Source of the DNA: Bacteroidota bacterium
Lineage (GTDB): Bacteria; Bacteroidota; Bacteroidia; UKL13-3
Assembly (NCBI GenBank): GCA_010027395.1
Contig: RGVD01000002.1
Span: 1 to 33,870 of the forward strand
Reading direction: 5' to 3'
DNA length: 33,870 nt
Shown: positions 5,632-33,438 of the stretch, one piece after another
How positions within the stretch are numbered: the first letter of the stretch is position 1
How the letters are laid out: the number at the start of each line of letters is the position of its first letter
Program-made: the position numbers and the translations under genes
Notes under the pieces: generated by a model
Database searches by the model: none
What the model saw: the letters and a program-made list of their open reading frames with translations, nothing else
Told to the model about the DNA's origin: nothing

Positions 5632-6670
5632 TCATAATGATCGGACGCTCATCGACATCGCGCAAAAATATAGTGCCTGGCTCGAATGCGTACATCTTGA
5701 AATCCATTGAAAACGAAGGATCACCCATCAACAACCTAAGACTGTCTTCAGCAAAATTAGCACCTGCCGCAGCAAAGCATTGGGTAAATGCAACGTGGCG
5801 GACATTGATTTCCGTAACAAAAGGCCTACCGGCCGAGTCCTCTTTCAAGTCAACAGTAAAAAACCCGTGCTGCGGAGCCTTTGCGTACTCAAAAACTAAA
5901 TCCATGGTTTTTTTGGCCACATCTATTAATTCAGGTTCGTTGAACAGCCTTCCAAATGAGGTGTTACCCGTAATTCCAGAAGGCGCAACTTTGGCCATGA
6001 TATAATTTACCCTTTCACCACATGCAGCGCGCAAAAGCTTTCCCTCCCAATATAGCAGCTTGCAAGCCAAATTGCGTCCAGGAAGGAACATACTGGCCAA
6101 AAAATATTGAACTCCAGGATTAATCTCTATCCAATTTTGAAGTGACTCCAAACCATCAATGCGCAGCGAACCCAAACCGCTCGTTCCTGAAGAACTCCTT
6201 ACCCAAAAATCACTCCCCAATTCATCGAAAATTAACTGGAGTTTATCTGAATCGCGATGAAAGGAAACAGATGGAGGAACCAACCCAGATTCCATTAGTA
6301 CCTCTGTCATGGCTGCCTTATCGACCAATATCCCATTGATAGAGGGGTCGGGGAGGAATGCCTTACAAGGCAATTCCCCTTTTTGGGCTCTTTTGCTCCA
6401 TTCCACAACCTCAAGTTCAGGTAATACTACTGCTGCTTGAATTTTATGCTTCTCCACAATCTCTTCAATTACCTTCCAATATGTAGCGTCATCGGCACGC
6501 GGAATTACATAGGAATGGGAAAATAATGCACTCTGATACAAACCAATTGCCAAACGATTCGTATCGGTTGCAATCAATTGTGCATTTCTGTATTGGGTGC
6601 CAATAAACTTCAAAGAGTGCGCAAAACTCCTAGGCGTTGGGCCACCTACGCCGGTAATTAAAATATTCAT
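5612..6670 (-). CDS. ATP-grasp domain carboxylate-amine ligase (carbamoyl-phosphate-synthase-like fold), substrate unknown
   Basis: It has the MNILITGVGGP pre-ATP-grasp N-terminus, then FWVRSSSGTSGLG and TEINVR motifs. I chose the ATG at 6668-6670 over the track start at 6712, which would overlap the upstream gene by 38 nt. Confidence 0.7.
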   Translation of the reverse strand: MNILITGVGGPTPRSFAHSLKFIGTQYRNAQLIATDTNRLAIGLYQSALFSHSYVIPRADDATYWKVIEEIVEKHKIQAAVVLPELEVVEWSKRAQKGELPCKAFLPDPSINGILVDKAAMTEVLMESGLVPPSVSFHRDSDKLQLIFDELGSDFWVRSSSGTSGLGSLRIDGLESLQNWIEINPGVQYFLASMFLPGRNLACKLLYWEGKLLRAACGERVNYIMAKVAPSGITGNTSFGRLFNEPELIDVAKKTMDLVFEYAKAPQHGFFTVDLKEDSAGRPFVTEINVRHVAFTQCFAAAGANFAEDSLRLLMGDPSFSMDFKMYAFEPGTIFLRDVDERPIIMNEKHLL

Positions 6671-6674
6671 CAAT

Positions 6675-7280
6675 TTAATTTTTTCCGTTAAATGGTTGCA
6701 TCGGCCGATCATCAGATTGATTGATGCCGTCGCGCCTCAATATCTTTAAAATAGTCAAGTAGAAAATCTTAATATCTAACGACAAGTTCATTCGATCTAC
6801 ATATTCAACATCTAATTCAAATTTCCGTGTCCATGAAATTGAGTTACGTCCATTCACTTGAGCCCATCCCGTAATTCCTGGCCGGACTTCATGTCTTCTG
6901 TTCTGCTCACTGGTGTATAAAGGTATATATTTAAATAGAAGAGGCCGCGGACCAATAAGGCTCATATCACCTTTAAGAACATTGTACAGTTGAGGGAGTT
7001 CATCCAGTGATAATTTGCGAACCCACATACCTAAACTTGTAATTCGCATATTATCGGGGAGTAAATTGCCATGGGCATCCAGGTCGTCTGTCATCGTTTT
7101 AAACTTTATTATCTTAAAAGGCATTTTATTCCGCCCCGGACGTTCTTGAAAAAAAAACGCTTTACCCCTATTTTGAAAAGAAAGGGCAATAATGCATACA
7201 AAAAGCAAGGGAAATGTTAGCGATAGAACGGTAAGGCTCAGAAGAATATCTAAAATACGCTTGCCGAAGTTTCTATACAC
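6675..7280 (-). CDS. Small monotopic phosphoglycosyl transferase (PglC/WcfS-like initiating undecaprenyl-phosphate sugar-1-phosphate transferase)
   Basis: 201 aa. It has a single N-terminal hydrophobic helix, the SLDELPQL Asp-Glu dyad, SLIGPRP and GITGWAQV motifs of the bacterial sugar transferase family. The start is GTG. Confidence 0.9.
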   Translation of the reverse strand: MYRNFGKRILDILLSLTVLSLTFPLLFVCIIALSFQNRGKAFFFQERPGRNKMPFKIIKFKTMTDDLDAHGNLLPDNMRITSLGMWVRKLSLDELPQLYNVLKGDMSLIGPRPLLFKYIPLYTSEQNRRHEVRPGITGWAQVNGRNSISWTRKFELDVEYVDRMNLSLDIKIFYLTILKILRRDGINQSDDRPMQPFNGKN

Positions 7281-8271
7281 TTGTCTTAAGCATTGATTTC
7301 AAACCTTCATTAACCGGCAATTGCCACACCAACTTACACCAATCGTGGTTGCCTTCAATTAAACCAGGACCATTAGCCGTTACTACAATATCCCAACCAA
7401 TAGATCGATTTTGCTTATATTTCAAAGCAGCGTCTGTTGCCAACTGTACACACTCCTTCCAAAAAGGGACTTGAAAACCAACGATTGAAACCCCAGTTAA
7501 TGGGTGAATAGAAACCGCTTCCTTTGTTATATCGCTATAAACACCTGGTCCAGTAATAACGCCAGTTGATTCATCTATAGGGGCGGCCAGATTGCCGGCA
7601 GCTAAATTATCGACCGAACTATTAATTGATATTCTTTGCCTACAGCCCAAAATTTCAACCTCATTGCAATTATTCAATTGAGTGAAAATTCGCACTGTAT
7701 TTACAGCGCTTGGCGACAGTGCATTCAACGACGGATGTTGACTTATAAATGTCTCAACCATATCAAATCCCTCTTTATTCATGTAGGAAACAAAAGAGTT
7801 TCTCCCTAGTTCGGCGGAACTAATGATTCGAACGGATGTTCCACACTTGCCATTTGAAACTTTAAAAACTAACTTTTGAGATTCGAGAATTTTATTAACC
7901 AGCACCGGGTCTTGAAGCAGCTCATTCAAGGAAAAAACATGATGCACAAAAAACTCTCGATAAAATTTGTAAAATTCCCTCTTATCGTCTAAAATTTGGC
8001 GCTTAGACGGTGGATTCATGACCTTTTGATACTCGTACATATGACCGGTTCCCGCCCAATTCAACTTTTGCGCATGGCTCATTTCGAAGAAACGAAATTG
8101 ATAATATTCTAGAATTGAGATATTGTACTTGACTGAATGATAGAAAATTAAGATCCACTGCCTTATAGAGCTATAACCTCGTTGAGATTTTAGATAAATT
8201 TGAAAAATACGGAGCCGATCCCAGTCGAGATGACGCACGTAATACCCAAAATATAAAAGCCTATTGATCAT
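7273..8271 (-). CDS. Sugar-transfer-associated ATP-grasp protein (ATPgrasp_ST-like amidoligase)
   Basis: 332 aa. Motifs are VFKVSNGKCGTSV, VDNLAAGNLAAPIDESTGVI, HPLTG and GWDIVVTANGPGLIEGN, which are characteristic of the ATP-grasp clade found beside sugar transferases. Confidence 0.7.
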   Translation of the reverse strand: MINRLLYFGYYVRHLDWDRLRIFQIYLKSQRGYSSIRQWILIFYHSVKYNISILEYYQFRFFEMSHAQKLNWAGTGHMYEYQKVMNPPSKRQILDDKREFYKFYREFFVHHVFSLNELLQDPVLVNKILESQKLVFKVSNGKCGTSVRIISSAELGRNSFVSYMNKEGFDMVETFISQHPSLNALSPSAVNTVRIFTQLNNCNEVEILGCRQRISINSSVDNLAAGNLAAPIDESTGVITGPGVYSDITKEAVSIHPLTGVSIVGFQVPFWKECVQLATDAALKYKQNRSIGWDIVVTANGPGLIEGNHDWCKLVWQLPVNEGLKSMLKTSV

Positions 8272-9389
8272 AAATCACTATTCATCACATGAACCAACTC
8301 ATCCACACTAACAAACTCCACATCTGGCATCTTATTAACTACTTTATCTAACAATGATTTTAAAGCTATTAGTCCTTTTTTACGATTTTCAGGATCAATT
8401 TGTCCGCAAAAATTAACGCGATGGGAACTTACAATGGCTGGTTTACCCCAAAAAAATGCTGCTTCAATTTGTTTCAACGTGAGATTTACCCAATCAATAT
8501 CTCCATCGGTTGGTTCAAATACACAATTTCGAACAATAGTGGTTGTGTCACCCAAACCGCTTTCTCCTAGAATATTATGTTCTTTAACATAAACCCCCTC
8601 CCCTTTATGACGCATGGTAGCACGTGCCTTATCAACTCCTTTCACACCAAGGCTACCAACATAGGCATACAAGTTCGCATGTAATTGCTGCGCAGGTGGA
8701 GTAAAAGTAATTGATTTATAACCATATACTTGCTCAAATCGTTCTAATCCATCTTTTAGAATTTCTTTGTGCAATTCTACTTCTTCCTCCTTCCAAAAAG
8801 CAAAAGCTTGATTGAAGCCAACCTTTGGATAGCTGGGATGATTAGGGACACCTGCTAAAGATTGACTTTCGATGTTGGCTAATAGTTGTGGTGTTTTATC
8901 TTTTAATAATGCATTGAATAGGTTAACATTCAAATGCTCTCTTCCGTGAAATTGAGGTTTTATTAAATTGTCATGTATCCCTTCCAATAAAACTTCATAG
9001 GCTCTGTCATAGGCACTATCTAGCGTTCCAAGTTTTTTATATGTTAAATCTAGATTTTCAGGTATAAAACAGTCAGCCTCTATCGTCTTTTGATAGTCTG
9101 TGTTGCACGGTAAAGCATACAGGGTAAAAATGGCTGTATTACCTTTTTTATCTTTTACTGATCCTAGAACATCAAACAACATTTCATAGTCCTCTCGAGT
9201 ATCTAATGCATCAAACTGATCAAAACGATTATCTAGCTTAACTCCCTTTTGTAAGAGATTATCTTTTGCTTTAAGATTTGCTACTCGAATATTACCGTAA
9301 TCGTCAACTGCAAAAGCCAATAGGCGCCTTTTGGTCTTCCAACCCTGTACGTTTTTTAGATTATTCTTTAAAAAACTAATTACTGACAT
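8268..9389 (-). CDS. Uncharacterised 373-aa protein, paralog A, with putative carbohydrate-esterase-4 / DUF2334-like deacetylase-fold motifs
   Basis: Motifs appear in order: AVDDYG (DD), PQFHGREHLN (HxxxH), FTPP, NCVFEP and GKPAIVSSHRVNF. It is clearly paralogous to 16898..18019, with the same length and the same motif order. Confidence 0.45.
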   Translation of the reverse strand: MSVISFLKNNLKNVQGWKTKRRLLAFAVDDYGNIRVANLKAKDNLLQKGVKLDNRFDQFDALDTREDYEMLFDVLGSVKDKKGNTAIFTLYALPCNTDYQKTIEADCFIPENLDLTYKKLGTLDSAYDRAYEVLLEGIHDNLIKPQFHGREHLNVNLFNALLKDKTPQLLANIESQSLAGVPNHPSYPKVGFNQAFAFWKEEEVELHKEILKDGLERFEQVYGYKSITFTPPAQQLHANLYAYVGSLGVKGVDKARATMRHKGEGVYVKEHNILGESGLGDTTTIVRNCVFEPTDGDIDWVNLTLKQIEAAFFWGKPAIVSSHRVNFCGQIDPENRKKGLIALKSLLDKVVNKMPDVEFVSVDELVHVMNSDL

Positions 9390-10584: not shown

Positions 10585-11790
10585 TTATAAAAGACTAGTG
10601 TAGAGATTAAAATACCCATTCAAATGATTCTGAAGACCAAAAAGTTCCTCCGCTTTTTTTCTGCAATTCTTTGAATAATTTTCCTTGCCTTGAGTAATAA
10701 TATATTGAATAGATTTCAAGAACTTCTGTGGGTCAAGGCCAGGGACTATTTCTCCCACTTCGGGGCTAACCAACTCTGGCAAGGCAGAGGAATCATTTAC
10801 AACGCAGGGAGTACCGCAGGATAATGCCTCTGCAACAACCATCCCAAATGTTTCAGCAATAGAAGGGCTTACAAAAACGTCTGCCGCATTATAAAAACGG
10901 ACTAATTCTTCTAAATTCTGTGTCTTTTGATACCCATATATATTTCGTGGTAGGGATTTGATTTGTTTTTCACTCAAGCCAATTAAAACAATCCGATAAT
11001 CAACGTCCAAAAACTTTGCCACTTCCAAAAATATTCTAAGCCCTTTCCCATCTGACCATTCATTAGCAACTCCCAAAATTACTTTATACCCCGAAAGACC
11101 TAACTTAATTTTAGATAATGCGTGGTCCTTTGGCTTGAAGAGATCCAAATTAACCCCATTATAAATAGTTTGAACAGGATATTCCTTTAAAAAAGACTGC
11201 CTTACCTGAGATTCCAACCAATGAGATACAGTTACTATGGTAAGGTTATTCAAACCTTGAAACGAGGTTTTTTTTCTGATAAAATTATTTCTAGAATTAT
11301 CAAAAACTATAGATTCTGGATATAAAAAAGAAAGGGGGCAGGTATGGCATTGGGTTTTCCATTTGTCGCAACCAACTCTTTCATAGTAACAGCAATGTCC
11401 AGTAAATGCCCAGCAATCGTGTAGTGTCCAAACAATTGGTTTACCGTATCTTTTCAAAAATTCAAAAAGCAATTCCACATTTAAATAATATCCATGAAGG
11501 TTATGTAAATGGATGACATTAGGATTAATTTCCAAAATTTGTTTGACCAGTTTGGCAGTTGCACTTTTGGAATGGAATCCATGGGTGTCAAAAGCCCTTG
11601 TATTAACCAAATGATTCAACTGATGAAGTTTAGAGCCAATTTTAAGCGTTTGCGATTTGCTTTTTCGAGCTCTTCTACCAAAGGCAACGGTACTTTCCCC
11701 ATAGTTAGCGATAACAAAAGCACCAAGATCTTCGGTTATCCTACCTGTGCTACCTACACCTAGTGTAGAATTAATCTGGAGTAATTTCAT
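10585..11790 (-). CDS. Glycosyltransferase family 4 with a Cys-rich insert
   Basis: 401 aa. Motifs are HLHNLHGYY, LHDCWAFTGHCCYY..C.KW..QCHTCP and ETFGMVVAEALSCGTPCVV (EX7E). Confidence 0.8.
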   Translation of the reverse strand: MKLLQINSTLGVGSTGRITEDLGAFVIANYGESTVAFGRRARKSKSQTLKIGSKLHQLNHLVNTRAFDTHGFHSKSATAKLVKQILEINPNVIHLHNLHGYYLNVELLFEFLKRYGKPIVWTLHDCWAFTGHCCYYERVGCDKWKTQCHTCPLSFLYPESIVFDNSRNNFIRKKTSFQGLNNLTIVTVSHWLESQVRQSFLKEYPVQTIYNGVNLDLFKPKDHALSKIKLGLSGYKVILGVANEWSDGKGLRIFLEVAKFLDVDYRIVLIGLSEKQIKSLPRNIYGYQKTQNLEELVRFYNAADVFVSPSIAETFGMVVAEALSCGTPCVVNDSSALPELVSPEVGEIVPGLDPQKFLKSIQYIITQGKENYSKNCRKKAEELFGLQNHLNGYFNLYTSLL

Positions 11791-12855
11791 TTAATTATGA
11801 TATAAAGCCTTTTCAAACTGCTTAACAATAGTTCCCTTTTCAAAACCTTTCAAGGAAGGTGGCGCATTATTAGACAATTTATTTATCAGCTGTTTATCTT
11901 CAATTAATTGATTAAGACATTCAGCCAATTGGACATCATTTCCAGGTTCAAAAAGAAATCCATTAAATCCATTTGTAATAATCTCTGAGGGTCCTGCTAT
12001 GCAATCAGAAGCAACGCAGCATAATCCTAAGCTCATAGCTTCCAATAATGCATTTGGAAAACCTTCATAAAAGGACGGTAAAACAAAAATCGTTGACTCT
12101 AAAAGTAATTGCTCAAAATTTTGCATTCTCCCATGAAAAACTACCTTATTATCAATTTTAAGTTCTCTACTTAATTGTTCAAGTGATGGTCTTTCATTAC
12201 CATCTCCTACCAAGTGTAGTTTCCATTCTTTATTTCGTAATTGAGCGATTGCTTTCAGGAGAACTTGGTGGCCTTTCTCCCTAGACAATCTACCAACTGT
12301 TATGATTTGTTTCTTTTGGATTCGCCTTTCTAAATTGACGAATTGAACTGGATTAGGAATTACCGTTATTTTTTTAACTTTATATTTTTTTTTAAGAATT
12401 TCCTTTGCTCTTTCAGTTTGAACAATCAATTCGTCTGCAAAACGATAGAAAATCCTGTTCATGGTCTCAACGAAATTGCCCAAAAACAAATTGGGTCCCA
12501 TCCTATTTGTAATTATCATTTTCGATGAAAGTCCTCTAGTTGCAACAATTGCAAATGCATTGAACCAATCGCCAAAACAAATTACAGCATCAGGTTTATT
12601 ATGCTTAATTAAACCACGAATAAATGGAATCATCCTGATTGTATAGATAAATTTATTCATTTTACTCCTATCTATTCCAGGAAAGTAAACGGTTATAGAA
12701 GGATGTAAATCAAAATCGATGGAGGTTTGAAATAAAGAAATTATGAAAACATTATCTCCCTTTTCAGCCAGTGAATTTGCTAAAAAAACTAGTGCCCTTT
12801 CCTGTCCACCAATAGTCAATCCACCGCCTAATAAGCAAACTGTTTTAAATTTCAT
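11791..12855 (-). CDS. Glycosyltransferase family 4
   Basis: 354 aa. Motifs are GGQERAL, GRLSREKG and YEGFPNALLEAMSLGLCCVASD (EX7E). Confidence 0.85.
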   Translation of the reverse strand: MKFKTVCLLGGGLTIGGQERALVFLANSLAEKGDNVFIISLFQTSIDFDLHPSITVYFPGIDRSKMNKFIYTIRMIPFIRGLIKHNKPDAVICFGDWFNAFAIVATRGLSSKMIITNRMGPNLFLGNFVETMNRIFYRFADELIVQTERAKEILKKKYKVKKITVIPNPVQFVNLERRIQKKQIITVGRLSREKGHQVLLKAIAQLRNKEWKLHLVGDGNERPSLEQLSRELKIDNKVVFHGRMQNFEQLLLESTIFVLPSFYEGFPNALLEAMSLGLCCVASDCIAGPSEIITNGFNGFLFEPGNDVQLAECLNQLIEDKQLINKLSNNAPPSLKGFEKGTIVKQFEKALYHN

Positions 12856-13864
12856 TAAGCTGTTTTAAAAGCAAATCCACCATCCACTCACAAGAATCAA
12901 ACTTTCCTTCATGAAAATTCATTTCTTTGTCCCAATATCCTATACATTGGTTGTATACATCTATCGCATATCCATAGCTGATTTCAACAATCAAGGGTTT
13001 TTTTTTAGAATCGAACACATAATCAAACGCCACTACCTGTGAACTCAAAGATTGTGCATATTCGAACGATTTTTGGATGAGATTGTCATCAAAATGATGT
13101 TTTTCAAACAATAAGTTTCCACTCCCTGAAGCTCTGAAATCATTATTCCTGACAAGTCTCTTAATTGCAAAAGCTTTATCATCTACAACTATTACTCGAA
13201 TATCAGAATCATTATTCGGAATAAAATCTTGAAAATAGACTTCAAATCTTTCTTTAGGCAAAAGCTTTGCATATCTGGGAACATTAAATATTCTGTAACA
13301 TGATTTTAACACACCGAAAAATGAATCCTTACCTTCCCTAAATTTTCGCCATCTCTCATTTACTACACCATAATCATCATATACACTAAATCCAGAGGAA
13401 AAGGCCTTAGTGATTAATGAAATAGCTTGTTTTCTGTTATACGTCAACCTCACATTGGCAGATCCTGCACCGCGTGTCAATTTAAAAACTTTAGGGAAAT
13501 CAGTATCCTTTACCCACTCTATCGCTTCTTCTTTGTCCAAAAAATGGTAAGTTGGAACTAACGGTAATCCCAAGGATTCCAACAAATATTTTTGTGCTAT
13601 TTTATCGTCAAAATGCCATCCGGTCCTGAAATTGGGAAAAACTATTTTCCCTGCATGCTCTAGGGCAAAAATTAGTCTCTTTGCTTTCAAAATATCTTTA
13701 GAATTGACATGCCAATGATGCCACATGAGGGCATCACAATCCTCCAATTGATGAATGATATTATTGTCGTAGCAATTCACCAATTTGTAAGGGATTCCCT
13801 TGGACTCACAATATTGAATCCACCTTGGAGTGAATCCTAAATTGTTATTATGTATTGCTATCAT
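12845..13864 (-). CDS. ATP-grasp (RimK-like) carboxylate-amine ligase, substrate unknown
   Basis: 339 aa. Motifs are FPKVFKLTRGAGSANV, DIRVIVVDDKAFAIKR..NDFRASGSG and VEISYGY. It overlaps the downstream GT gene by 11 nt. Confidence 0.7.
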   Translation of the reverse strand: MIAIHNNNLGFTPRWIQYCESKGIPYKLVNCYDNNIIHQLEDCDALMWHHWHVNSKDILKAKRLIFALEHAGKIVFPNFRTGWHFDDKIAQKYLLESLGLPLVPTYHFLDKEEAIEWVKDTDFPKVFKLTRGAGSANVRLTYNRKQAISLITKAFSSGFSVYDDYGVVNERWRKFREGKDSFFGVLKSCYRIFNVPRYAKLLPKERFEVYFQDFIPNNDSDIRVIVVDDKAFAIKRLVRNNDFRASGSGNLLFEKHHFDDNLIQKSFEYAQSLSSQVVAFDYVFDSKKKPLIVEISYGYAIDVYNQCIGYWDKEMNFHEGKFDSCEWMVDLLLKQLNEI

Positions 13865-13868
13865 TAAT

Positions 13869-15752
13869 TTAATCTAAATATTGTTTTGCCCAAATTTCAA
13901 ACCCCATCATTAACCAAACAGCATCCTGCTGTTCAGCAGTCATTTTTTGGGGATGACTCATCCATTGAGCCAATGATTGTTCGTTAAAAATGTTACGTTT
14001 TTGGATACCAGGTAGCAGTTCCTTATTCCATCTTTCTTGGAAGGGGGCTGAGCTGAAAAAAGCCTTCAACGGAATACCAAAACCCATTTTATCACGGAAG
14101 GCAAAGGCTTCGCCAAAAGTAGATGCACATATTTCTTTTAAAGGAAATTTACCGTGCCACTTACTATTTCGTTGTTGAATCAAATGCTCATCGGAAATAC
14201 GTAGTGCAGTTTCCAGCATTTCATTGTCTAAAAAGGGAACGCGATTCTCTATGGTGTGTGCCATCGACATTTTGTCTTGACGCATTAATAAATCTGGCAA
14301 ATAGGTCAATAATTCGTATTTGCGTTTTCGCTTGGGCAATGTATCAGAAATTGAATTCCATACTTTCTTTCTGCTTTCCATGGCATGGGAAACAGAAAAA
14401 TTAGGATATAAGGCATAAGCACCGGCAAAGTTGCCAAAAGCCGTCTGTAGAATATAACGGTTTTCTTCTTTTTTCCAAACATTAAGAAAATCAAGAATAT
14501 GAAGCTTATTTTTTATAGCTTTCTTCAACGTTTCTACAGACCAAAAAGAACTTTTATTGGGTAAAAAGCGACTATACCCTGCCAATGCTTCGTCTGCACC
14601 TTCTCCACTTAAGAGTACCGTTACGTGTTTTTTGGCTTCTCTACTCAATAACTTTATCCCTATAGTATTGGGATGATTTAAGGGCTGCTCGAAATGCCAA
14701 ATGGCCTCATCAATCAAATCTAAATAGGCAGTGGCATCGAGCGTAAATTGATGCGATTTCAGTTTATACCGCTCAGCTACTTGATCAATGTATTTTTTCT
14801 CAGAAAAGTTCTTTTCGTCAAAAACGATGGAAACCGTTTCTAAGGCTCCTTCATTTAAGGTTTCCGCGGCAAAGGCGGTAACCAAAGACGAATCTACACC
14901 ACCCGATAATTGACATCCCAGCTTCACATCACTGATCAATTGACGCTTAACCGAATTTCTTAGAGCAGTCTCTAATTCAGTTTTATTGAGTTGCGGATTT
15001 ATGGCGCCCTCATTTCGCAAATTGTAATAGACTTTAATCGCAACGCCTCCATCTGAATCGATGCACCAATACGTGCCAGGCTCAATATTGATAATGTTTT
15101 TAAACAATGTATGATTAATGGCATTACGAAACAACAAGAATTCAGAAAGCTTAGAATCATCGAGTTCAAATCTAAAATCTGGAAGCGCTTTAAAGCTTTT
15201 CATTTCCGATGAAAAAGAAATACGATCGTTTTCTTGCAACACATACAAAGGCTTGATTCCCACACGATCTCGGATTAAGAAAAATGCGTTCTCTCGTCTA
15301 TCGTAAATGGCTAAGGAAAACATGCCATTTAGGCGTTTAAGCATTCCTTCCACTCCATATTCTAAATATAAATTCAGTACAACCTCTGTGTCGCTATGCC
15401 CTTTAAAAACATAACCTTTAGCTTCTAAATCAAGCTTAAAGTCGAAGGCATTATAGACCTCCCCGTTCATCATTAAAGCCACTTTAGACTCATGATGTAT
15501 CATGGGCTGATGCCCAGCAGGACTTAAATCTAATATACTCAAGCGATTAAACCCAAAAATAAGATTGGGAGCTGATAGAAAGTCATTGGGTCTTTGAACA
15601 GCTAACTCCTCTAAGGTTTTTTGCGTTGTATGAATACCTACGATACCCGAATCATCAGGGCCTCGATGACATTGAAGTTCCAGCATATTGAGAATCGTTT
15701 GTGAATTCGATTCAAAATTATTCTTTAAAAAGTAACCTGCGAATCCGCACAT
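13869..15752 (-). CDS. Asparagine synthase (glutamine-hydrolysing) family amidotransferase, AsnB/WbpS-like
   Basis: 627 aa. It has the MCGFAGY N-terminal nucleophile Cys, GPDDSG, and the SGGVDSS PP-loop. Confidence 0.9.
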   Translation of the reverse strand: MCGFAGYFLKNNFESNSQTILNMLELQCHRGPDDSGIVGIHTTQKTLEELAVQRPNDFLSAPNLIFGFNRLSILDLSPAGHQPMIHHESKVALMMNGEVYNAFDFKLDLEAKGYVFKGHSDTEVVLNLYLEYGVEGMLKRLNGMFSLAIYDRRENAFFLIRDRVGIKPLYVLQENDRISFSSEMKSFKALPDFRFELDDSKLSEFLLFRNAINHTLFKNIINIEPGTYWCIDSDGGVAIKVYYNLRNEGAINPQLNKTELETALRNSVKRQLISDVKLGCQLSGGVDSSLVTAFAAETLNEGALETVSIVFDEKNFSEKKYIDQVAERYKLKSHQFTLDATAYLDLIDEAIWHFEQPLNHPNTIGIKLLSREAKKHVTVLLSGEGADEALAGYSRFLPNKSSFWSVETLKKAIKNKLHILDFLNVWKKEENRYILQTAFGNFAGAYALYPNFSVSHAMESRKKVWNSISDTLPKRKRKYELLTYLPDLLMRQDKMSMAHTIENRVPFLDNEMLETALRISDEHLIQQRNSKWHGKFPLKEICASTFGEAFAFRDKMGFGIPLKAFFSSAPFQERWNKELLPGIQKRNIFNEQSLAQWMSHPQKMTAEQQDAVWLMMGFEIWAKQYLD

Positions 15753-15754
15753 GT

Positions 15755-16888
15755 TTAATCAAATTTTTTCAATGAATGTAACAACACCTCTCTATGCGAT
15801 TCGCATTTCGATAGTATTTTAAGCATCTTCTTTTTTGAAATACCCATTATATCAGGCAACAGACCTCTTTTATGAAGTGCAACTAGGTATTTATTTCTAT
15901 AGGGCTGAATGCGGGACTGCATAATTGGTTTAATACTTTCCGCATAATCTTCAAAATATTTTTGTAGCTGTTTATCATCTGCTATAATGCTGTTCAGCTT
16001 TTGTACTGCTGACTCCTGAACCGTAAGCTCTTGCTGAGTCAAGTGTTTTACGCCAACATGTTTGTTATTTTGGTGAACGAATTGATATTCAAAAGAGATT
16101 CCAGAAGATTTATCGAAAACCAACCGCAAAATCATTCCATTATTCCAAGTATCGTTTCTCAGACCCGGCCAATCAAAGCAAAAGTTACCCAAACTGTAAA
16201 AAATCGGTTTGTCCTTATATACTTCGTAGCCTGATATGATATGCGTATGGTGTCCCACCACAGCATCCGCACCTGCATCTATCATAAAGCGAAATTGCGC
16301 TTTCATGCGTGGGCTTGGCAAGGGATAATGCTCGTGTCCTCCGTGTAAAATTACAATGATAAAATCAATATTATTATCTTTGGCCTCTTGAATTTTAAGC
16401 AAAGAACGAGGGTAATCAATAGGATTGCAACCTGGTTCACAATCATGTGTAGTGGTCCACTCGTTTTCCGCCATATTAATGATGGCAAAAGACATCTCCT
16501 TGATTTGTAAAAATTTAGTTTGTGAAGCTTCATCGATGGAAGCACCACTACCACACCAGTCTATGTTATGTTTTTTTAAAGCATCATAGGTGTCTTGCAT
16601 ACCAACCCATTGATAATCCTTGAAATGATTGTTGGCTGTAACCACCAACTTACAATTAAGATAAGATAGGATCTCGACTGTCTCAGGCTTAGATTTTATA
16701 TGTGGACCTGTTTTGACAATCATTTGGTCGTGATTCGTTAGGGGGCACTCTAAATCTATAATATTCAAATCATTGTTTAAAAAGAAAGGTCTAACTTCGT
16801 CAAATAAAGGCTTCCAATCGCCCGTTTCAAATTGCTTTTCTACCCTTGTCATCGGACAAAAGTCACCTGTAAAGCCTATAGATACCAT
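15755..16888 (-). CDS. CapA / PGA_cap family metallophosphoesterase-fold protein
   Basis: 377 aa. Motifs are GFTGDF, ANNH, ILHGGHEH, VVGHHTH and SLGNF, the calcineurin-like metal-site pattern of CapA-type proteins. Confidence 0.8.
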   Translation of the reverse strand: MVSIGFTGDFCPMTRVEKQFETGDWKPLFDEVRPFFLNNDLNIIDLECPLTNHDQMIVKTGPHIKSKPETVEILSYLNCKLVVTANNHFKDYQWVGMQDTYDALKKHNIDWCGSGASIDEASQTKFLQIKEMSFAIINMAENEWTTTHDCEPGCNPIDYPRSLLKIQEAKDNNIDFIIVILHGGHEHYPLPSPRMKAQFRFMIDAGADAVVGHHTHIISGYEVYKDKPIFYSLGNFCFDWPGLRNDTWNNGMILRLVFDKSSGISFEYQFVHQNNKHVGVKHLTQQELTVQESAVQKLNSIIADDKQLQKYFEDYAESIKPIMQSRIQPYRNKYLVALHKRGLLPDIMGISKKKMLKILSKCESHREVLLHSLKKFD

Positions 16889-16897
16889 AAATAATTA

Positions 16898-18019
16898 CTA
16901 ATCTAAGTTTAACAAATCAGGCGTTGAAATAAATTCAATGTCTGGCCATTTTACAACTATTTTTTTTAAAAGTTCACTTAACAATCTGAGGCCAAACTCA
17001 CCGTTTTTCTGACTTATTGATGAAATATAATTAATTCTATGAGTAGAAATAACGGCTGGCTTCCCAAATAAGAAAGCTATCTCAATATCCTTCATAGATT
17101 TATTAACCCAATCAAAATCCTTGTTAAATACTGGCTCAAAATTTACATTCCTTATATTATATAATAATCCTGAAATATCTTTTTCAAAGAAATAATGTGG
17201 TATTTTCTTATACCTATTGAATTCACCTGTTGGAGCTAATTGAACTCTCATACCCTGTAAAATTTCAATCCCATGATCGTACAAAAAACCATGAAGATCA
17301 GGGTCTAAATTATAACATGGCGGAATGAATGATTTTGATGAAAAACCAAATATTTTTTTAAATAGTTTAAGGCCATCTGAAATAATCATTTTATGAAATT
17401 CTATTTCATCTTTTGAATCCCAATCAAATGCTTCCATATAACTATAATCTCCAGTACCTGAAAATGTTGATTTCAAATGAAATGATAGTAATGTTTTTTC
17501 CTTTTTATTATTCAAATCATTTAGCCATCTCGTAATATTTAAATGCTCTCTACCATGAAATTGAGGAACAATAAAGCCATCGTTAATGCCTTTTTTAAAA
17601 AATTCAAACGTAGAAGATGAACTTTGATAATTTCTGTAGGATTCTGTAAACGGTTCTAAAAAAAATTCTTTATAATGATATTTTTCAATTTTATCAAAAT
17701 CAGGATTAGCAACTATTGTGTTAGCAGTTATTTTAGCTGGATAACCATTTACATCCTTTACTGAGTTTAATACTTCAAAAATCCTTTCAAAATCATTAGA
17801 ATTCTCCAATGAATCATACTTATAAAAACTTTTCGATAAGTCTATTTTATTTGCACTATAAACATCAAGTGCATTTTTTGAAGGAGTACGAATAGCTCCC
17901 CAATCATCAGATTCAAAAATAACATATTTTTTATCTAATTTTTTACCCCTGTAATTAACTCTAATTGCAGAGGCGATATTTTTTAATTTTATCAACGATT
18001 CTTTATTCACCCCAAACAA
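16898..18019 (-). CDS. Uncharacterised 373-aa protein, paralog B of 8268..9389, with putative CE4/DUF2334-like deacetylase-fold motifs
   Basis: Motifs are ESDDWG, PQFHGREHLN, FIPP, NVNFEP and GKPAVISTHRINY. The only available starts are TTG (18017-18019) or GTG (18008-18010). This gene is extremely AT-rich. Confidence 0.45.
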   Translation of the reverse strand: MFGVNKESLIKLKNIASAIRVNYRGKKLDKKYVIFESDDWGAIRTPSKNALDVYSANKIDLSKSFYKYDSLENSNDFERIFEVLNSVKDVNGYPAKITANTIVANPDFDKIEKYHYKEFFLEPFTESYRNYQSSSSTFEFFKKGINDGFIVPQFHGREHLNITRWLNDLNNKKEKTLLSFHLKSTFSGTGDYSYMEAFDWDSKDEIEFHKMIISDGLKLFKKIFGFSSKSFIPPCYNLDPDLHGFLYDHGIEILQGMRVQLAPTGEFNRYKKIPHYFFEKDISGLLYNIRNVNFEPVFNKDFDWVNKSMKDIEIAFLFGKPAVISTHRINYISSISQKNGEFGLRLLSELLKKIVVKWPDIEFISTPDLLNLD

Positions 18020-19214
18020 CTCTTTTGATATAACTCGTGTAACTCAATATAATTCGCACCGTTTTCTCGCTGACGTTGGGCATGGAATAGTCGGAGACGG
18101 GGCGGAACAAGGTAATCTGTGAGCTGTAATCTTTAAGCTCCGTTTTGTTGTTAGCGGATCTTGCACCAATTGCTTGAAGTTCGAGTTGGCCTAGGCATTG
18201 AAGGATTCGTTCGGGGTCGAGTCCTACCATCATTACAGAGGCCTCTTCCATGGCTTCGGGACGTTCGTGGGCGTCGCGGATGTTAAGTGCTCTAAAGTTC
18301 ATGACGGATGATTCTTCAGAGATGGTACCGCTATCAGATAGGACGGCAAACGAATTTATTTGTAGTGCGTTGTAGTCAGAGAATGCGAGGGGTTTTTGCC
18401 ATTGAATCAGCGAATGAAGATGGTACGCGGATGACACGGATTGATTGGATTTGCCCTGATTTAATTGATCTAGGCGTTTCCGTGTACGTGGATGGGTACT
18501 AACAATTATCGGAAACTGATACTTTTCAGCTATCTGATTTAGAGTTTCAAGTAATCCGAAGAAATTCTTGTCGTTACTGATATTTTCCTCTCGGTGGGCA
18601 GAGACAACAAAGTATTTACCTTTTTCTAATCCCAAACGATCTAATACATCACTGGATTGAATCTTCGGCATGTAATGATTCAATACCTCAAACATCGGTG
18701 AACCTGTTTTGATAATACGGTCTGCGGGTAAACCTTCTTGGAGTAAGTATTCTCTGGCGATATCTGAATAAGTTAGGTTGATATCCGCAATGTGATCGAC
18801 AATTTTACGATTGGTTTCCTCAGGTACACGTTGATCGAAACAGCGGTTGCCTGCCTCCATATGAAAGATAGGGATTCTACGCTTCTTAGCTGGGATGGCA
18901 CACAAACAAGAGTTGGTATCTCCTAGAACCAAAAAGGCATCTGGATTAACTTCTTCCAAAATGGGATCGATGTTAATCAATATTTGCCCGATGGTTGCTG
19001 TAGCTGTTGCACCCGCGGCGTTTAAAAAATAATCCGGTTTACGAACACCCATGTCCTCGTAGAATACTTCGTTTAGTTCGTAGTCATAATTCTGACCCGT
19101 ATGAACCGTAATGTGTTCGATTGCGGGACTGGCATCTAATGCTGCCATGACTCTTGATAATCGGATTATTTCAGGTCGTGTTCCTACAACCGTCATTACT
19201 TTTAATTTTTTCAT
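18003..19214 (-). CDS. fnlC: Non-hydrolysing UDP-HexNAc 2-epimerase of the FnlC/Cap5G/WbjD type
   Basis: Motifs are MKKLKVMTVVGTRPEIIRL, HTGQNYDYELN, FHMEAGNRCFD..VPEE.NR and SAHREEN. I prefer the ATG at 19212-19214 (MKKLKV) over the track start at 19223. Confidence 0.85.
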   Translation of the reverse strand: MKKLKVMTVVGTRPEIIRLSRVMAALDASPAIEHITVHTGQNYDYELNEVFYEDMGVRKPDYFLNAAGATATATIGQILINIDPILEEVNPDAFLVLGDTNSCLCAIPAKKRRIPIFHMEAGNRCFDQRVPEETNRKIVDHIADINLTYSDIAREYLLQEGLPADRIIKTGSPMFEVLNHYMPKIQSSDVLDRLGLEKGKYFVVSAHREENISNDKNFFGLLETLNQIAEKYQFPIIVSTHPRTRKRLDQLNQGKSNQSVSSAYHLHSLIQWQKPLAFSDYNALQINSFAVLSDSGTISEESSVMNFRALNIRDAHERPEAMEEASVMMVGLDPERILQCLGQLELQAIGARSANNKTELKDYSSQITLFRPVSDYSMPNVSEKTVRIILSYTSYIKRVVWGE

Positions 19215-19215
19215 T

Positions 19216-20331
19216 CTAAACATTTTCTAAATACGTATCTGGGTCTGCTGGGTCATAAGGTTCGTTTATCCAAAAAATGGTATACAATGTTTCATCGCCT
19301 ATATTCTTAATATTATGGGTGTACCAGATGGGCATATCAACATAGGCGGGTTCTTCCCCGTCTAGGTAAAAATCGCGAACTTCATCGGTTCCGATTCTGC
19401 GGAGTTGGATAAGGGCTTTTCCTTTAACTACTGCGAAGCGCTCTATCTTACGGGTATGAAAGTGATTTCCCCTAGTAATACCTGGAACGGTGGTTGAGAA
19501 AGATGTTTGTCCTGCTATGCCATGACGGGCGATTTCTACAAAAGCGCCTCGGTTATCGGTATGCTGAGTAAATTTTCGTGGAAAGTAATTCGCAATATCC
19601 ATGTAGCAACGGTAGGTATTAAACAGCTTGTGTTCGAATGAGCTGTTAATGGCTGGAAATTCTCCCTTTTCTTGATAGACATCTTTATAGTGTTGCAACA
19701 AATCCAATATTTCTGATACCTTAGCTTCGGCGGTATGCGGAATTTGAAGCTCGTGGGTGTTATCCTCCCTACGAATCGCTTTTAAAATCGCCTCCACTAG
19801 TTCACCCACATAAATCAACTTCAATAGGCCATCTACTTCAACTTTAGGTGTTTCATTGTGTGAAACTTGATGGCAAAACGTAGCCACAACAGAATTATAA
19901 TAAGGATTTCCAAAGGGGCCAAAAACATTCGGAATCACCATTCCTGTTAACTTCCCGCCTGCTCTATTAGCCCAATCTGACAGCATCAAGCGCCCTTCCA
20001 TCTTGGATTTACCGTAAAGGTTATCTCGCTCTTCCTGAGTAGAAGAAGAAATCAAGATATGTGCTTGGCTTTGGTTCCTATCAAGTGAAGCTACCAATTT
20101 CTTCACAAGACTAGTATTCGTTTCATAGATTACTTCGGAGTCGTTGTGACGGTTTAAGGCCGCCAAATGAACAATGACATGGCATTGGGATACAAAATTA
20201 TCTAACTTCGCTTCATTCTCAAAAAAAGAACGATCAAAGTCGATAAGCGTAAATTCATCTTTGAAAAGATTAAGTGTTTGATATAAATGACACCCAACAA
20301 ATCCACTTTTTATTTTAGAACGTAGATGAAT
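19216..20331 (-). CDS. fnlB: CapF/FnlB/WbjC-like bifunctional SDR + C-terminal cupin enzyme; no canonical start codon, so possibly 5'-disrupted
   Basis: The stop-to-stop open frame is 371 codons, the length I recall for this family. It reads IHLRSKIKSGFVGCHL...VIVHLAALNR...YGKSK... and ends with a cupin domain (GITRGNHFH, YTHNIKNIGDE). No ATG, GTG or TTG occurs before the TTG at 20164-20166, which the track uses. Confidence 0.7.
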   Translation of the reverse strand: MHLRSKIKSGFVGCHLYQTLNLFKDEFTLIDFDRSFFENEAKLDNFVSQCHVIVHLAALNRHNDSEVIYETNTSLVKKLVASLDRNQSQAHILISSSTQEERDNLYGKSKMEGRLMLSDWANRAGGKLTGMVIPNVFGPFGNPYYNSVVATFCHQVSHNETPKVEVDGLLKLIYVGELVEAILKAIRREDNTHELQIPHTAEAKVSEILDLLQHYKDVYQEKGEFPAINSSFEHKLFNTYRCYMDIANYFPRKFTQHTDNRGAFVEIARHGIAGQTSFSTTVPGITRGNHFHTRKIERFAVVKGKALIQLRRIGTDEVRDFYLDGEEPAYVDMPIWYTHNIKNIGDETLYTIFWINEPYDPADPDTYLENV

Positions 20332-20394
20332 CTAATCAAAAGGGTCTTGTCTACTATTAAGTGTGAATAGGTATGAAATATGCGCGCTATAGTC

Positions 20395-20781
20395 TCACCA
20401 ATTTAAGTTCTCCAAAGACTCTCTAAAATCATCACGCTTAGACTCCTCCAATCTAAAATCTGAAAAAACCATCAGTACACTTCCTTCTTCCAATGATTCA
20501 AATCCATTGTAATACCCTCCAGAAATTTCAAGAACCTTGGGTTCCAAATCTATCAGTTGATATTCCATCCTTTCAATTAAATTCATATTTATGGTCTTCA
20601 CCATAAAACTACCCTTAACCGCATAAAACCATTTGGTTTCAATCTTATGACCCTGCCATGCTCTAATGACACCGACTTTTGGTTCAATACAATACATTCG
20701 AACTACTTGAGACATATCGAAGTCGTTTACAAATCGTATTGTTCCCCGCAAGTCGGTATGGGTACTGCCGGTTATAAGCAT
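20395..20781 (-). CDS. Small stand-alone cupin protein, WxcM/FdtA-like (sugar-nucleotide ketoisomerase/epimerase-like)
   Basis: 128 aa. Motifs are TDLRGTIRF, RMYCI and IRAWQGHK.E.KWFYAVKGSF, which resemble the FdtA/WxcM cupin pattern. It lies between fnlA and fnlB. Confidence 0.6.
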   Translation of the reverse strand: MLITGSTHTDLRGTIRFVNDFDMSQVVRMYCIEPKVGVIRAWQGHKIETKWFYAVKGSFMVKTINMNLIERMEYQLIDLEPKVLEISGGYYNGFESLEEGSVLMVFSDFRLEESKRDDFRESLENLNW

Positions 20782-20854
20782 TTTTATATTGTGAGCTGTG
20801 AATTTGAATTGTGAAATGATATTGAATAAACCTCAAACTAATAGTTGATCTAGA

Positions 20855-21886
20855 TCAGACCAAAAACTCATCCACACTCTCACCAAAAATCTCTCTTCTA
20901 ACCAATCCCAAGCCACTGATCAACTTTTTTACTCCTTCTACATCTAGACGTTCCGTATTGTGAGAGTGATAATCCTCAATTTTTGCTGCATCTTGTTCCC
21001 CTTCTGAGAAATACATCGCATAGTTCAAATCCCGGTTATCAGCAGGGATACGATAAAATTCGCCCATATCTTCTGCTTTGACCATTTCTTCGCGCGTACA
21101 AAGCGTTTCATAGAGCTTTTCCCCATGACGCGTACCTATGATTTTGATTTCATTATCGGCATTGGCCAATTCTTTGACGGCTTGGGCTAAATCACCAATG
21201 GTCGCGGCAGGCGCTTTATTAACAAACAAATCACCAGAATTACCATGTTCGAATGCAAACAATACTAAATCTACAGCATCATGTAAACTCATTAAGAAAC
21301 GAGTCATGTTGGGGTCGGTGATGGTAAGCGGCAATCCACTTTTGATTTGATTAATAAACAAAGGAATCACCGATCCGCGAGAAGCCATTACATTACCATA
21401 ACGTGTTAAACAAACAGTGGTGTCGGACAAATTTCTTGCTTCTGCAATCGCTACTTTCTCCATCATGGCCTTGGAAATACCCATAGCATTGATGGGATAA
21501 GCCGCTTTATCCGTACTCAAACAAATCACCTTTTTCACTCCATTGGAAGCAGCCGCACGAATTACATTTTGTGTACCTTCCACATTGGTTTTTACGGCCT
21601 GCATAGGAAAAAACTCACAGGATGGTACTTGTTTCAAAGCCGCTGCATGGAAAATGTAATCTACTCCTCGGGTTGCAGGTTCTACCGAATTGAAATCACG
21701 GACGTCCCCGATATAAAATTTTAGCTTTGAGTTCTTCAAGGTATTCCTCATATCGTCCTGCTTCTTTTCATCGCGTGAAAAAATACGTATTTCGGCAAAA
21801 TGATTTGTATGCAAAAATTGCTGCAATACAGCGTTTCCAAAAGACCCCGTACCCCCAGTAATCAAAAGCGTCTTATTTTGTATCAT
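20855..21886 (-). CDS. fnlA: UDP-GlcNAc 4,6-dehydratase/5-epimerase (FnlA/CapE/WbjB type)
   Basis: 343 aa. Motifs are KTLLITGGTGSFGNAV, IFHAAALKQVP, MGISKAMMEK and YGNVMASRGSVIPLF, typical of soluble CapE-type enzymes. Confidence 0.9.
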   Translation of the reverse strand: MIQNKTLLITGGTGSFGNAVLQQFLHTNHFAEIRIFSRDEKKQDDMRNTLKNSKLKFYIGDVRDFNSVEPATRGVDYIFHAAALKQVPSCEFFPMQAVKTNVEGTQNVIRAAASNGVKKVICLSTDKAAYPINAMGISKAMMEKVAIAEARNLSDTTVCLTRYGNVMASRGSVIPLFINQIKSGLPLTITDPNMTRFLMSLHDAVDLVLFAFEHGNSGDLFVNKAPAATIGDLAQAVKELANADNEIKIIGTRHGEKLYETLCTREEMVKAEDMGEFYRIPADNRDLNYAMYFSEGEQDAAKIEDYHSHNTERLDVEGVKKLISGLGLVRREIFGESVDEFLV

Positions 21887-27835: not shown

Positions 27836-27840
27836 ATACA

Positions 27841-32052: not shown

Positions 32053-32080
32053 CAAATCAAATATTTTTTTTACGAATTTT

Positions 32081-33388: not shown

Positions 33389-33438
33389 AAGCCATTTTTT
33401 GATAAGCCAAGGATTAGAGACTCGAAGGGTGATTTGCT

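Follow-up and report, generated by a model that had tools for sequence, protein, structure and literature searches.

The locus examined here raises a simple question: what do four tightly packed genes, for an ATP-grasp ligase, an AsnB-type amidotransferase, a CapA-like protein and a distant relative of the polysaccharide deacetylases, do together in a polysaccharide locus that has neither CapB nor CapC? The DNA comes from a Bacteroidota bacterium (assembly GCA_010027395.1, contig RGVD01000002.1, positions 1-33,870). This whole stretch of 33,870 nucleotides, called the window in the following, is a single long low-GC polysaccharide locus in which every gene lies on the minus strand. The four cassette proteins are called D, C, B and A, in the order of their genes.

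We find that the four genes are clustered far beyond chance in genomes of several phyla, and that they form a modular unit, not a fixed four-gene block. As to their function, our preferred but tentative reading, to which we give somewhat less than an even chance, is that A would link an amino acid through an amide bond to N-acetylgalactosaminuronic acid (GalNAcA), C would epimerize this amino acid, B would amidate its free carboxylate, and D would de-N-acetylate an N-acetylhexosamine (HexNAc).

The four proteins and their genes

The cassette and the gene that follows it are arranged as follows:

16898-18019, minus strand: D, a soluble protein of 370-373 residues; (beta/alpha)-barrel fold distantly related to CE4/NodB and GH57 enzymes, and putative site of a metal-dependent de-N-acetylase/hydrolase
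15755-16888, minus strand: C, a soluble PGA_cap protein (CapA/MslH-type, calcineurin-like fold) with a C-terminal extension of ~140 residues; predicted C-alpha epimerase
13869-15752, minus strand: B, an AsnB-type glutamine-dependent amidotransferase with GATase_7 and Asn_synthase domains
12845-13864, minus strand: A, a predicted LysX/ArgX/RimK-like ATP-grasp amide ligase
11791-12855, minus strand: a GT4 glycosyltransferase (Pfam Glycos_transf_1 and Glyco_transf_4)

The gaps between the four open reading frames (ORFs) are 9, 2 and 4 nt, and A and the downstream GT4 gene overlap by 11 nt. Coordinates, gaps and overlap agree exactly with those given in an earlier note on this DNA. D in turn overlaps the upstream UDP-GlcNAc 2-epimerase gene (18003-19223). 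In the region 11500-21000, promoter-like sequences were only about two standard deviations more numerous than in shuffled DNA and showed no pattern, and the number of terminator-like sequences was at the chance level. No hydrophobic segments are present in A, B, C or D, and judged by sequence the four proteins are cytoplasmic and without membrane anchors.

The absence of CapB and CapC, which had been pointed out previously, is borne out by the Pfam scans: neither CapB (Mur-ligase type) nor CapC was matched by any long ORF of the window. Two small overlapping membrane ORFs (2598-3095 and 3059-3598) gave no Pfam match even at E<=1; they encode strongly hydrophobic products of 165 and 179 residues.

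Protein A matches the RimK family (PF08443) modestly, with E=3e-9 and 37 bits at a gathering cut-off of 21. RimK and CPSase_L_D2 are its only Pfam matches at E<=0.01, and ATPgrasp_TupA (PF14305) is not among them. Its scores against the curated models for RimK (TIGR00768, 55.5 bits) and LysX (TIGR02144, 45.7 bits) are both below the respective cut-offs of 143.4 and 275.6. The AlphaFold2 (AF2) model of A has a predicted local distance difference test score (pLDDT) of 90, and a Foldseek search with it places ArgX, LysX and RimK on top, with E ~1e-14 and template modelling (TM) scores of 0.64-0.8 (0.76-0.81 when normalized to the target). What these three have in common is that a carboxylate of a macromolecular acceptor is activated and then joined to a free amino acid through the latter's amino group. 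On the basis of the sequence and the structural model, the predicted task of A, which has more than 6,600 homologues, is to link an amino acid to a carboxylate carried by a glycan, and C6 of GalNAcA is the most likely one.

Protein B contains the GATase_7 and Asn_synthase domains (E=7e-71) and reaches 406.8 bits against TIGR01536, for which the cut-off is 267.1. It begins with MCGF, which provides the catalytic Cys2, and carries the PP-loop S283-G284-G285-x-D287-S288. In an alignment of 72 AsnB-family sequences, both elements are kept in at least 97%; 71 of these sequences come from the loci described below, with paralogues of 26-29% identity among them, and one is the window protein. The score against the model of the N-acetylglutaminylglutamine amide (NAGGN) amidotransferase is 316 bits, and neither TIGR03104 nor TIGR03108 is matched above its cut-off. 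B is thus a complete and intact AsnB-type amidotransferase as far as its sequence can tell, and its predicted reaction is the formation of a primary amide from a free carboxylate, either of the decoration or of a uronic acid. Glutamine-dependent carboxylate amidation would be common to B and other AsnB-type enzymes of the cell envelope, such as WbpS and WbtH, which act in the formation of N-acetylgalactosaminuronamide (GalNAcAN), and AsnH and AsnB1, which act in peptidoglycan. In the Ngg/AsnO pathway to NAGGN, the AsnB-type enzyme AsnO amidates a C-terminal carboxylate that has been made by an ATP-grasp ligase.

Protein C has 377 residues, of which 4-239 match PF09587 (PGA_cap) with E=7.9e-58 and 196 bits (cut-off 27). 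The maximum 19-residue hydropathy is 0.73, and the metal motif, GD9, starts at residue 8. C can thus be taken as soluble and cytoplasmic, since there is no hydrophobic segment and the metal motif stands at the very start. A full-library HMMER search at E<=1e-30 gave relatives in ~1,100 clusters at 50% identity, and nearly all of the 150 clusters listed are full-length proteins of ~375 residues; C belongs to a large soluble subfamily. Against NF038314, C scores 59.6 bits (cut-off 700). As a separate observation, a protein of 699 residues (P0383) consists of a C-like protein fused to an N-terminal domain of ~325 residues with a TDDD (DxD-like) motif. This domain has no Pfam or PDB match and no similarity to the window ORF 26912-27841, and offers no functional clue; P0383 may be a glycosyltransferase-like fusion.

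The only relative of C with a solved structure is MslH (8gq9), which epimerizes the C-terminal tryptophan of a lasso peptide and is also the only biochemically characterized PGA_cap member that we found. The earlier note had taken poly-gamma-glutamate synthesis as the precedent for CapA; MslH, acting on a C-terminal amino acid, is the more informative one. Mutagenesis of MslH has identified as essential the dyads His88/Asp91 and His295/Asp11 and the ligands Glu44, Asn87 and His259 (PMC10406935). These correspond in C to H88/D91, H216/D9, E47, N87 and H182, where N87, H88, D91, H182 and H216 are aligned to MslH by HMMER, and D9 and E47 are assigned to Asp11 and Glu44 by motif position. D9, E47, N87, H88, D91, H182, H214 and H216 are invariant among 55 aligned sequences (54 locus orthologues and the window protein), and three of the four Ca(II) ligands of MslH are thereby kept (E47, N87 and H182).

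The two proteins also share the calcineurin-like fold of the PGA_cap family, and the gene for MslH likewise lies beside one for an AsnB-type enzyme, the lasso cyclase. In the MslH reaction, the free carboxylate of the residue acted upon is bound at the metal. The similarity is, however, detectable over only ~140 residues, and MslH has 440 residues with extra peptide-binding domains, whereas the C-terminal extension of C is a different one. The context differs as well: MslH belongs to a lasso-peptide system, and no genes for peptides that are made on the ribosome and modified after translation (RiPPs), nor a precursor peptide, were found among the Pfam-scanned ORFs of the window. A peptide epimerase activity has also been proposed for CapA itself (PMC8179263). 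From its sequence, C is a predicted C-alpha epimerase of an attached amino acid.

Protein D has no Pfam match at E<=0.01, Polysacc_deac_1 (PF01522) included, and no NCBIfam match. It has more than 4,300 homologues, some of which are named 'polysaccharide (de)acetylase'. Its AF2 model (pLDDT 88) is matched in Foldseek by deacetylases of carbohydrate esterase family 4 (CE4/NodB) and by enzymes of glycoside hydrolase family 57 (GH57); these matches are distant (E ~5e-6, TM 0.4-0.5), and those at the top are HP0310, 3rxz, PdaC, ArnD and GH57 enzymes. In an alignment of homologues, D38 and D39, H155 and H159 (HxxxH), R290 and H327 are invariant. The DD pair, HxxxH, R and H match CE4 motifs 1, 2, 3 and 5 by sequence pattern only.

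The D gene has a GC content of 0.275, whereas that of C, B and A is ~0.37 and that of the upstream epimerase gene 0.43, and D is ~48% identical to its Cyclobacterium counterpart, compared with 65-68% for C and B. The atypical GC content and the lower identity suggest a mosaic origin within the locus. Duplicates are common in this family (126 members in 76 related loci), and the window itself encodes a second copy, D2, with 33% identity to D over 361 residues (E=2e-64). The role of D is the least certain one in the module.

Of the four identities proposed in the earlier note, those of B (both domains, TIGR01536 above the cut-off) and C (PF09587) stand as they were and that of A, as RimK-like, stands at the level of the fold. 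The description of D as CE4-like needs to be narrowed: it is valid at the level of superfamily and motifs, through the Foldseek matches and the invariant residues, but has no family match behind it.

Clustering and modularity across genomes

One genome per species was scanned with an alignment of D homologues as the query, and the best 80 loci were kept. These loci, with flanks of 10 kb around D, were compared with all window proteins, and their ORFs were clustered. A, B, C and D are all clustered in 53 of the 80 D-anchored species genomes, and many of the loci without all four genes are contig ends. Direct adjacency is seen for D-C in 41 loci, for C-B in 48 and for B-A in 44. Among the Bacteroidota, carriers were found in Flavobacteriales, Chitinophagales, Cytophagales, Saprospiraceae and Bacteroidales; outside this phylum they are Wenzhouxiangella (Gammaproteobacteria), Hydrogenedentota, Chlorobiaceae, Mariniblastus (Planctomycetota) and Melioribacter. 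The gene order is B-D-C-A in Wenzhouxiangella and Hydrogenedentota, and B-A-GT-D-C in Mariniblastus, which means that the cluster holds despite a changed order. Clustering of this extent is far beyond chance. In look-ups anchored on A instead, a Tara contig showed D-C-B-A, and two other contigs showed D-C-A, with B missing. No match to the cassette came from annotated E. coli genomes and plasmids.

In the usual Bacteroidota context, D is preceded by genes for DegT, Wzx, GT2, GT2, an acetyltransferase, (a WecB-like protein), GT4 and a Wzy-like membrane protein, and may itself be followed by a second D. After it come optional genes, either MBOAT plus AlgJ-like or FkbH/MaoC/short-chain dehydrogenase/reductase (SDR) genes, and then C, B, A and GT4. 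The GT4 homologue is present in 45 of the 53 full-cassette loci and stands directly after A in 23; its position makes it a candidate transferase acting on or beside the decorated sugar.

The presence and absence of the four genes are nested. A occurs alone in Acinetobacter and as D-A in Psychrobacter, and three loci have D-C-A without B (L077, L097 and L099). C without A was seen only at contig ends or on short contigs, and a complete B orthologue (at least 44% identity) without both C and A was never seen on long contigs. The only B-like sequence beside A in a locus without C is a truncated remnant (L058); AsnB paralogues of 26-29% identity do occur elsewhere in the same loci. This nesting fits an order in which A acts first, then C and then B, with B as an optional last step. 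Across the loci, the identities of C and B to the window proteins co-vary (r=0.88), those of D do so moderately and those of A hardly at all.

In four loci (L058, L060, L075 and L080), a DUF362 protein of ~443 residues takes the place of C-B between D and A, and in three of them (not L075) it is preceded by a 170-residue ORF without a Pfam match. DUF362 belongs to Pfam clan CL0471 together with the LarA racemases/epimerases (PMC11770544), which are 2-hydroxy-acid racemases.

The synteny that the earlier note had suggested looking for in other genomes is thus present, and its four-gene unit is real in many of them. As a fixed arrangement it does not stand: A alone, D-C-A, the DUF362 replacement and the insertions between D and C all show it to be modular. 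Regarding these insertions, genes for a membrane-bound O-acyltransferase (MBOAT) and an AlgJ/DUF1574-like protein lie between D and C in L012, L017, L024, L028, L031-L034 and L039, and D-C inserts are sometimes preceded by FkbH-like, MaoC-dehydratase and SDR genes. The D-C junction looks like a hot spot for extra acyl-decoration genes.

Some related loci carry, by Pfam reading, WbpB/WbpD/WbpI-like genes, which suggest diacetamido-uronic acids. A further set, in L016, L058, L060, L084 and L097, encodes a HisH-like GATase, a HisF-like protein and a PP-loop NAD_synthase-like protein, to which some of these loci add Gfo/Idh/MocA and hexapeptide acetyltransferase genes; by their families they look like an acetamidino-forming set and a WbpB/WbpD-type pathway to diacetamido-uronic acid. 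We also considered B as the enzyme forming an acetamidino group on N-acetyl-L-fucosamine (L-FucNAc), which the adjacent fnlABC genes would supply. This was rejected, as fnl genes accompany the cassette in only 3 of the 80 loci, and as the separate PP-loop protein with its HisH/HisF-like partners appears, again by Pfam reading, to take this task in related loci.

Substrate, proposed reactions and alternatives

The window encodes orthologues of Gna and Gne2, the enzymes leading to UDP-GalNAcA, and this makes a HexNAc-uronic acid plausible as the substrate:

32081-33463, minus strand: Gna-like UDP-GlcNAc 6-dehydrogenase with UDPG_MGDP_dh domains and identity to Acinetobacter/Psychrobacter Gna
31047-32142, minus strand: Gne2-like 4-epimerase (UDP-GlcNAcA to UDP-GalNAcA), in two ORFs matching the halves of the Epimerase Pfam family

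The window Gna is 61-62% identical to that of the gna-gne2 modules of Acinetobacter and Psychrobacter, and the two Gne2 halves are 55-62% and 44-46% identical to Acinetobacter Gne2. The suggestion of such a substrate in the earlier note is in this way strengthened, with about 61% identity to the Acinetobacter UDP-GalNAcA module. The gne2 gene is split into two overlapping ORFs (31492-32142 and 31047-31541) by a frameshift or a sequencing error. If the split is real, the uronic acid available would be GlcNAcA instead of GalNAcA.

The link between A and these genes is seen directly in Moraxellaceae. Homologues of A with 51-56% identity are present in the capsule (K) loci of A. schindleri, A. indicus, A. 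haemolyticus, Acinetobacter sp. YWS30-1 and Psychrobacter celer. All five loci start with gna-gne2-wzx and have A downstream, directly after these genes in A. schindleri, A. indicus and YWS30-1, and a few genes later in A. haemolyticus and Psychrobacter celer. Among the K loci of A. baumannii, the gna/gne2 pair, which constitutes the UDP-D-GalNAcA module, is found in just 21 of 237 (PMC9676051). One of the A. baumannii loci, KL18, has the order gna-gne2-wzx-alt1-gtr39-wzy-gtr40-itrA1-qhbC-qhbB-gdr (supplement of PMC9676051), and the YWS30-1 locus is nearly the same, with A in the place of alt1. KL17 and KL18, which are sister clusters, make the K17 polysaccharide, in which one GalNAcA is amidated with D-alanine (PMC10715181). 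Alt1 is, like A, an ATP-grasp ligase of a Wzx/Wzy capsule locus encoded after gna-gne2-wzx, and its product in K17 is a D-alanine amide at C6 of GalNAcA. It acts alone, presumably on free D-Ala, whereas A is joined by the CapA/MslH-type, AsnB and CE4-like proteins.

A second comparison is offered by the HS:2 capsule of C. jejuni, where the ATP-grasp enzyme Cj1438C amidates the C6 carboxylate of glucuronic acid on the chain as it grows, a reaction that has to precede the addition of the next sugar (PMC11800379). As in the scheme proposed here, the amidation at C6 of a uronic acid is followed by a second tailoring enzyme. The nucleophiles are, however, serinol phosphate or ethanolamine phosphate, the enzyme that follows is Cj1435, a phosphatase of the haloacid dehalogenase (HAD) type, and the pathway has neither an AsnB nor a PGA_cap protein.

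In the reading that we prefer, the cassette would be a cytoplasmic decoration module of a Wzx/Wzy-dependent heteropolysaccharide, an O-antigen or a capsule. In the first step, A would activate a carboxylate of the sugar chain, most likely C6 of the D-GalNAcA provided by Gna and Gne2 of the locus, and join a free amino acid to it by an amide bond through the amino group, either on the lipid-linked unit or on the growing chain. The new free alpha-carboxylate would then be bound at the metal site of C, which would invert the alpha-carbon from L to D, on the model of MslH and its C-terminal tryptophan. Next, B would adenylate the same carboxylate and, with glutamine, convert it to the primary amide, whereby the remaining negative charge would be lost. 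In the last and least certain step, D, as a CE4-like metal hydrolase, would de-N-acetylate a HexNAc of the same lipid-linked unit. Each step would remove negative or add positive charge, and a D-residue would be introduced, which would fit an editing of charge and protease resistance. The family memberships with their intact motifs, the lack of membrane anchors, the clustering with its nested pattern and the association of A with UDP-GalNAcA genes are established by the analysis; the substrates, the sequence of the reactions, the epimerization by C and the part played by D are inferred from them. The more specific claim, that a calcineurin-fold CapA/MslH-type enzyme epimerizes the amino acid after a member of a hitherto unrecognized family of LysX/RimK-like glycan amidoligases has linked it to a sugar of the lipid-linked repeat unit, and that AsnB caps the product as a D-amino-acid amide, is possible but rather doubtful, and we hold it less firmly than the outline.

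Several observations weigh against this proposal. Regarding the ligase, Alt1 belongs to ATPgrasp_TupA (PF14305, E=3.7e-45), whereas A is RimK/LysX-like without a TupA match. A can therefore only be a positional analogue of Alt1, and the idea that the two are orthologous was rejected. Cj1438C is not an orthologue of A either, being a TupA-like ATP-grasp in fusion with a GT2 domain. Regarding the epimerase, the position of the MslH ligand His261 (H187) is a histidine in the window protein but a phenylalanine in 28 of the 55 aligned sequences, and is thus not conserved across the C orthologues. Moreover, the PGA_cap metal and His/Asp residues are common to the phosphodiesterase YmdB (PMC10406935), and since the site is shared with metallophosphoesterases of this kind, an epimerase and a phosphatase are inseparable by sequence. 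Regarding the uronic acid, a UDP-sugar 6-dehydrogenase was found within 10 kb of D in none of the 80 loci. This negative is uninformative, because the window gna itself is ~14 kb from D and so outside the flank; with such flanks, only in the window and in the Moraxellaceae could uronic-acid genes be shown to co-occur. Finally, the scheme has no need of D, yet D keeps with the cassette across phyla, and to our knowledge no polysaccharide carries a uronic acid amidated by an amino-acid amide.

The role of D is where the first alternative has its strength. In this scenario, D deacetylates a HexNAc or its uronic acid and A acylates the freed amine through the side-chain carboxylate of an acidic amino acid, after which C epimerizes it and B amidates the alpha-carboxylate. 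The linkage would be gamma-Glu or beta-Asp (compare poly-gamma-glutamate and the D-Asp ligase), and the product an N-(D-isoglutaminyl/isoasparaginyl)-type substituent. All four enzymes then have a role. D, whose CE4-type motif set is intact by sequence pattern, accompanies A across phyla and in rearranged orders, the second D paralogue of the window adjoins a second ATP-grasp ligase, and the native polymer of CapA is gamma-linked Glu with free alpha-carboxylates, which resemble the presumed handle of C. On the other hand, four of the five Moraxellaceae loci have A but no D, and what is shared there is gna-gne2 and not a deacetylase, and the nearest structural relatives of A activate the carboxylate of the acceptor, not that of the free amino acid. 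In addition, D is preceded by the GT4 and Wzy-like pair (adjacent in 47 loci) about as often as it adjoins C (41), and extra genes are often inserted between D and C. Overall, we consider this scenario unlikely, though it deserves to be kept in mind.

Just as improbable in our judgement is that the enzymes make independent decorations that are inherited together. B would make a uronamide (GalNAcAN, WbpS/WbtH-like), A would ligate a phospho-amine or an amino acid to another uronic acid, C would be a metallophosphatase that removes the phosphate, as Cj1435 does after Cj1438C, and D would be an unrelated deacetylase. The calcineurin-like nature of PGA_cap and the residues it shares with YmdB fit this well, and so do the coupling of an ATP-grasp amidoligase with a phosphatase in C. 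jejuni (PMC11800379), the uronic-acid genes of the window and the AsnB paralogues that stand alone elsewhere in the same loci. An enzyme making uronamides independently would, however, be expected to turn up alone in some cases, and this is never so for complete orthologous B on long contigs, where C and A are always present. Also the co-variation of C and B argues against independence, the conserved block has no genes for a phospho-amine donor (pyridoxal-phosphate-dependent decarboxylase or aminotransferase), and the one PGA_cap enzyme for which biochemistry was found is an epimerase.

A poly- or oligo-glutamate-like peptide on the glycan, with A adding Glu processively in place of CapB, C acting as CapA and B capping the end, is considerably less probable still. 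It would be in line with the name of the PGA_cap family, which comes from poly-gamma-glutamate synthesis, with the presence of RimK, the maker of poly-alpha-glutamate tails, among the closest structural relatives of A, and with the three ATP-grasp ligases of the locus (A and two others). C indeed has the PGA_cap domain in common with CapA/PgsA of the CapBCA/PgsBCA systems. These systems include CapB and CapC, whereas the window has neither and is a Wzx/Wzy heteropolysaccharide locus, and PgsA has an N-terminal membrane anchor that C lacks. Furthermore, A reaches only 55 bits at a RimK-family cut-off of 143, and in Moraxellaceae it occupies the slot of a single-residue transferase. Lastly, a chance juxtaposition of unrelated genes in a mosaic locus, for which the low GC content of D and its much lower likeness to the Cyclobacterium counterpart could be cited, is refuted by the synteny of the four genes in 53 of 80 species genomes of several phyla, rearranged orders included, and its probability is negligible.

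The surrounding locus and the meaning of the cassette

Beyond the cassette, Pfam scans of the window identified a Wzx-like flippase, a Wzy-like polymerase, eight glycosyltransferases and an initiating Bac_transf, and further FnlA/B/C-like, PglF-like and DegT-like genes in addition to the UDP-sugar dehydrogenase and the split epimerase. Two genes stand out by their similarity to the cassette:

8268-9389, minus strand: D2, the paralogue of D, with the conserved D motifs kept; directly upstream of ATPgrasp_ST
7273-8271, minus strand: ATPgrasp_ST ('sugar-transfer associated') ligase (PF14397, E=3e-44), adjoining D2 and the initiating Bac_transf

They belong to a second decoration-like block (4762-9389), which also contains the Bac_transf (6675-7280), a PylC-like ATP-grasp protein (5612-6712) and a DUF218/ElyC-like protein (4762-5631). 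The ATPgrasp_ST ligase beside D2 may carry out a second decoration step. A similar neighbourhood, with an unannotated gene for 377 residues, Bac_transf and ATPgrasp_ST, is present in L099.

Three other features of the window can be mentioned. The ORF 26912-27841 (309 residues) is without a credible Pfam match, DUF3798 at E=0.074 being at chance level. The protein of 451 residues encoded by 29420-30775 has weak AMP-binding, DVU_1553-family and PaaK-like matches and is 26% identical to a CapK_C-annotated protein of the A. schindleri K locus; it may be a decoration enzyme that forms acyl-adenylates. Finally, compared with two near-identical metagenomic contigs (L001 and L002, 99.9% identity), the window lacks ~31 bp at ~20308. 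The fnlB-like gene in this region (within 19216-20400) encodes 372 residues in L001 but is a TTG-started ORF of 316 residues in the window. Since the gap removes the start of the gene, it is probably truncated or affected by an assembly error.

Literature searches for the gene combination gave nothing relevant, in agreement with the earlier view that the arrangement is not a described pathway. The amidation of glycans by ATP-grasp ligases and by AsnB-type enzymes is of a kind already known. What we found no description of is the use of a family of LysX/RimK-like ligases for such a task, its conserved association with AsnB and a soluble protein of the CapA/MslH type, and the breadth of the module.

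Amino-acid and amide decorations alter the charge and antigenicity of polysaccharides and their recognition by phages or depolymerases, and very few of the enzymes are known. The two characterized ligases, Alt1 and Cj1438C, are both TupA-like, and the cassette points to a second and, with the homologues of A, much larger family. It also points to a glycan-tailoring role for the soluble CapA-like proteins. Work on the role of CapA/PgsA in poly-gamma-glutamate synthesis has been held back because the complex is membrane-bound and unstable; with a soluble paralogue and a defined small substrate, the proposed epimerase chemistry could be put to a direct test. Cultured carriers of the full cassette are Cyclobacterium xiamenense CGMCC 1.12432, Flavobacterium paronense CECT 8460, F. 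macrobrachii an-8 and Ferruginibacter paludis CECT 8366, and Acinetobacter schindleri CIP 107287 has the A component only, which makes structural and genetic tests feasible.

If the proposal is true, the cassette would be a short non-ribosomal, peptidoglycan-like tailoring line on surface glycans that is widespread in Bacteroidota and reaches other phyla. A CapA-type protein would then gain a job outside the poly-glutamate capsules, and would provide a tractable soluble model for the function of CapA/PgsA.

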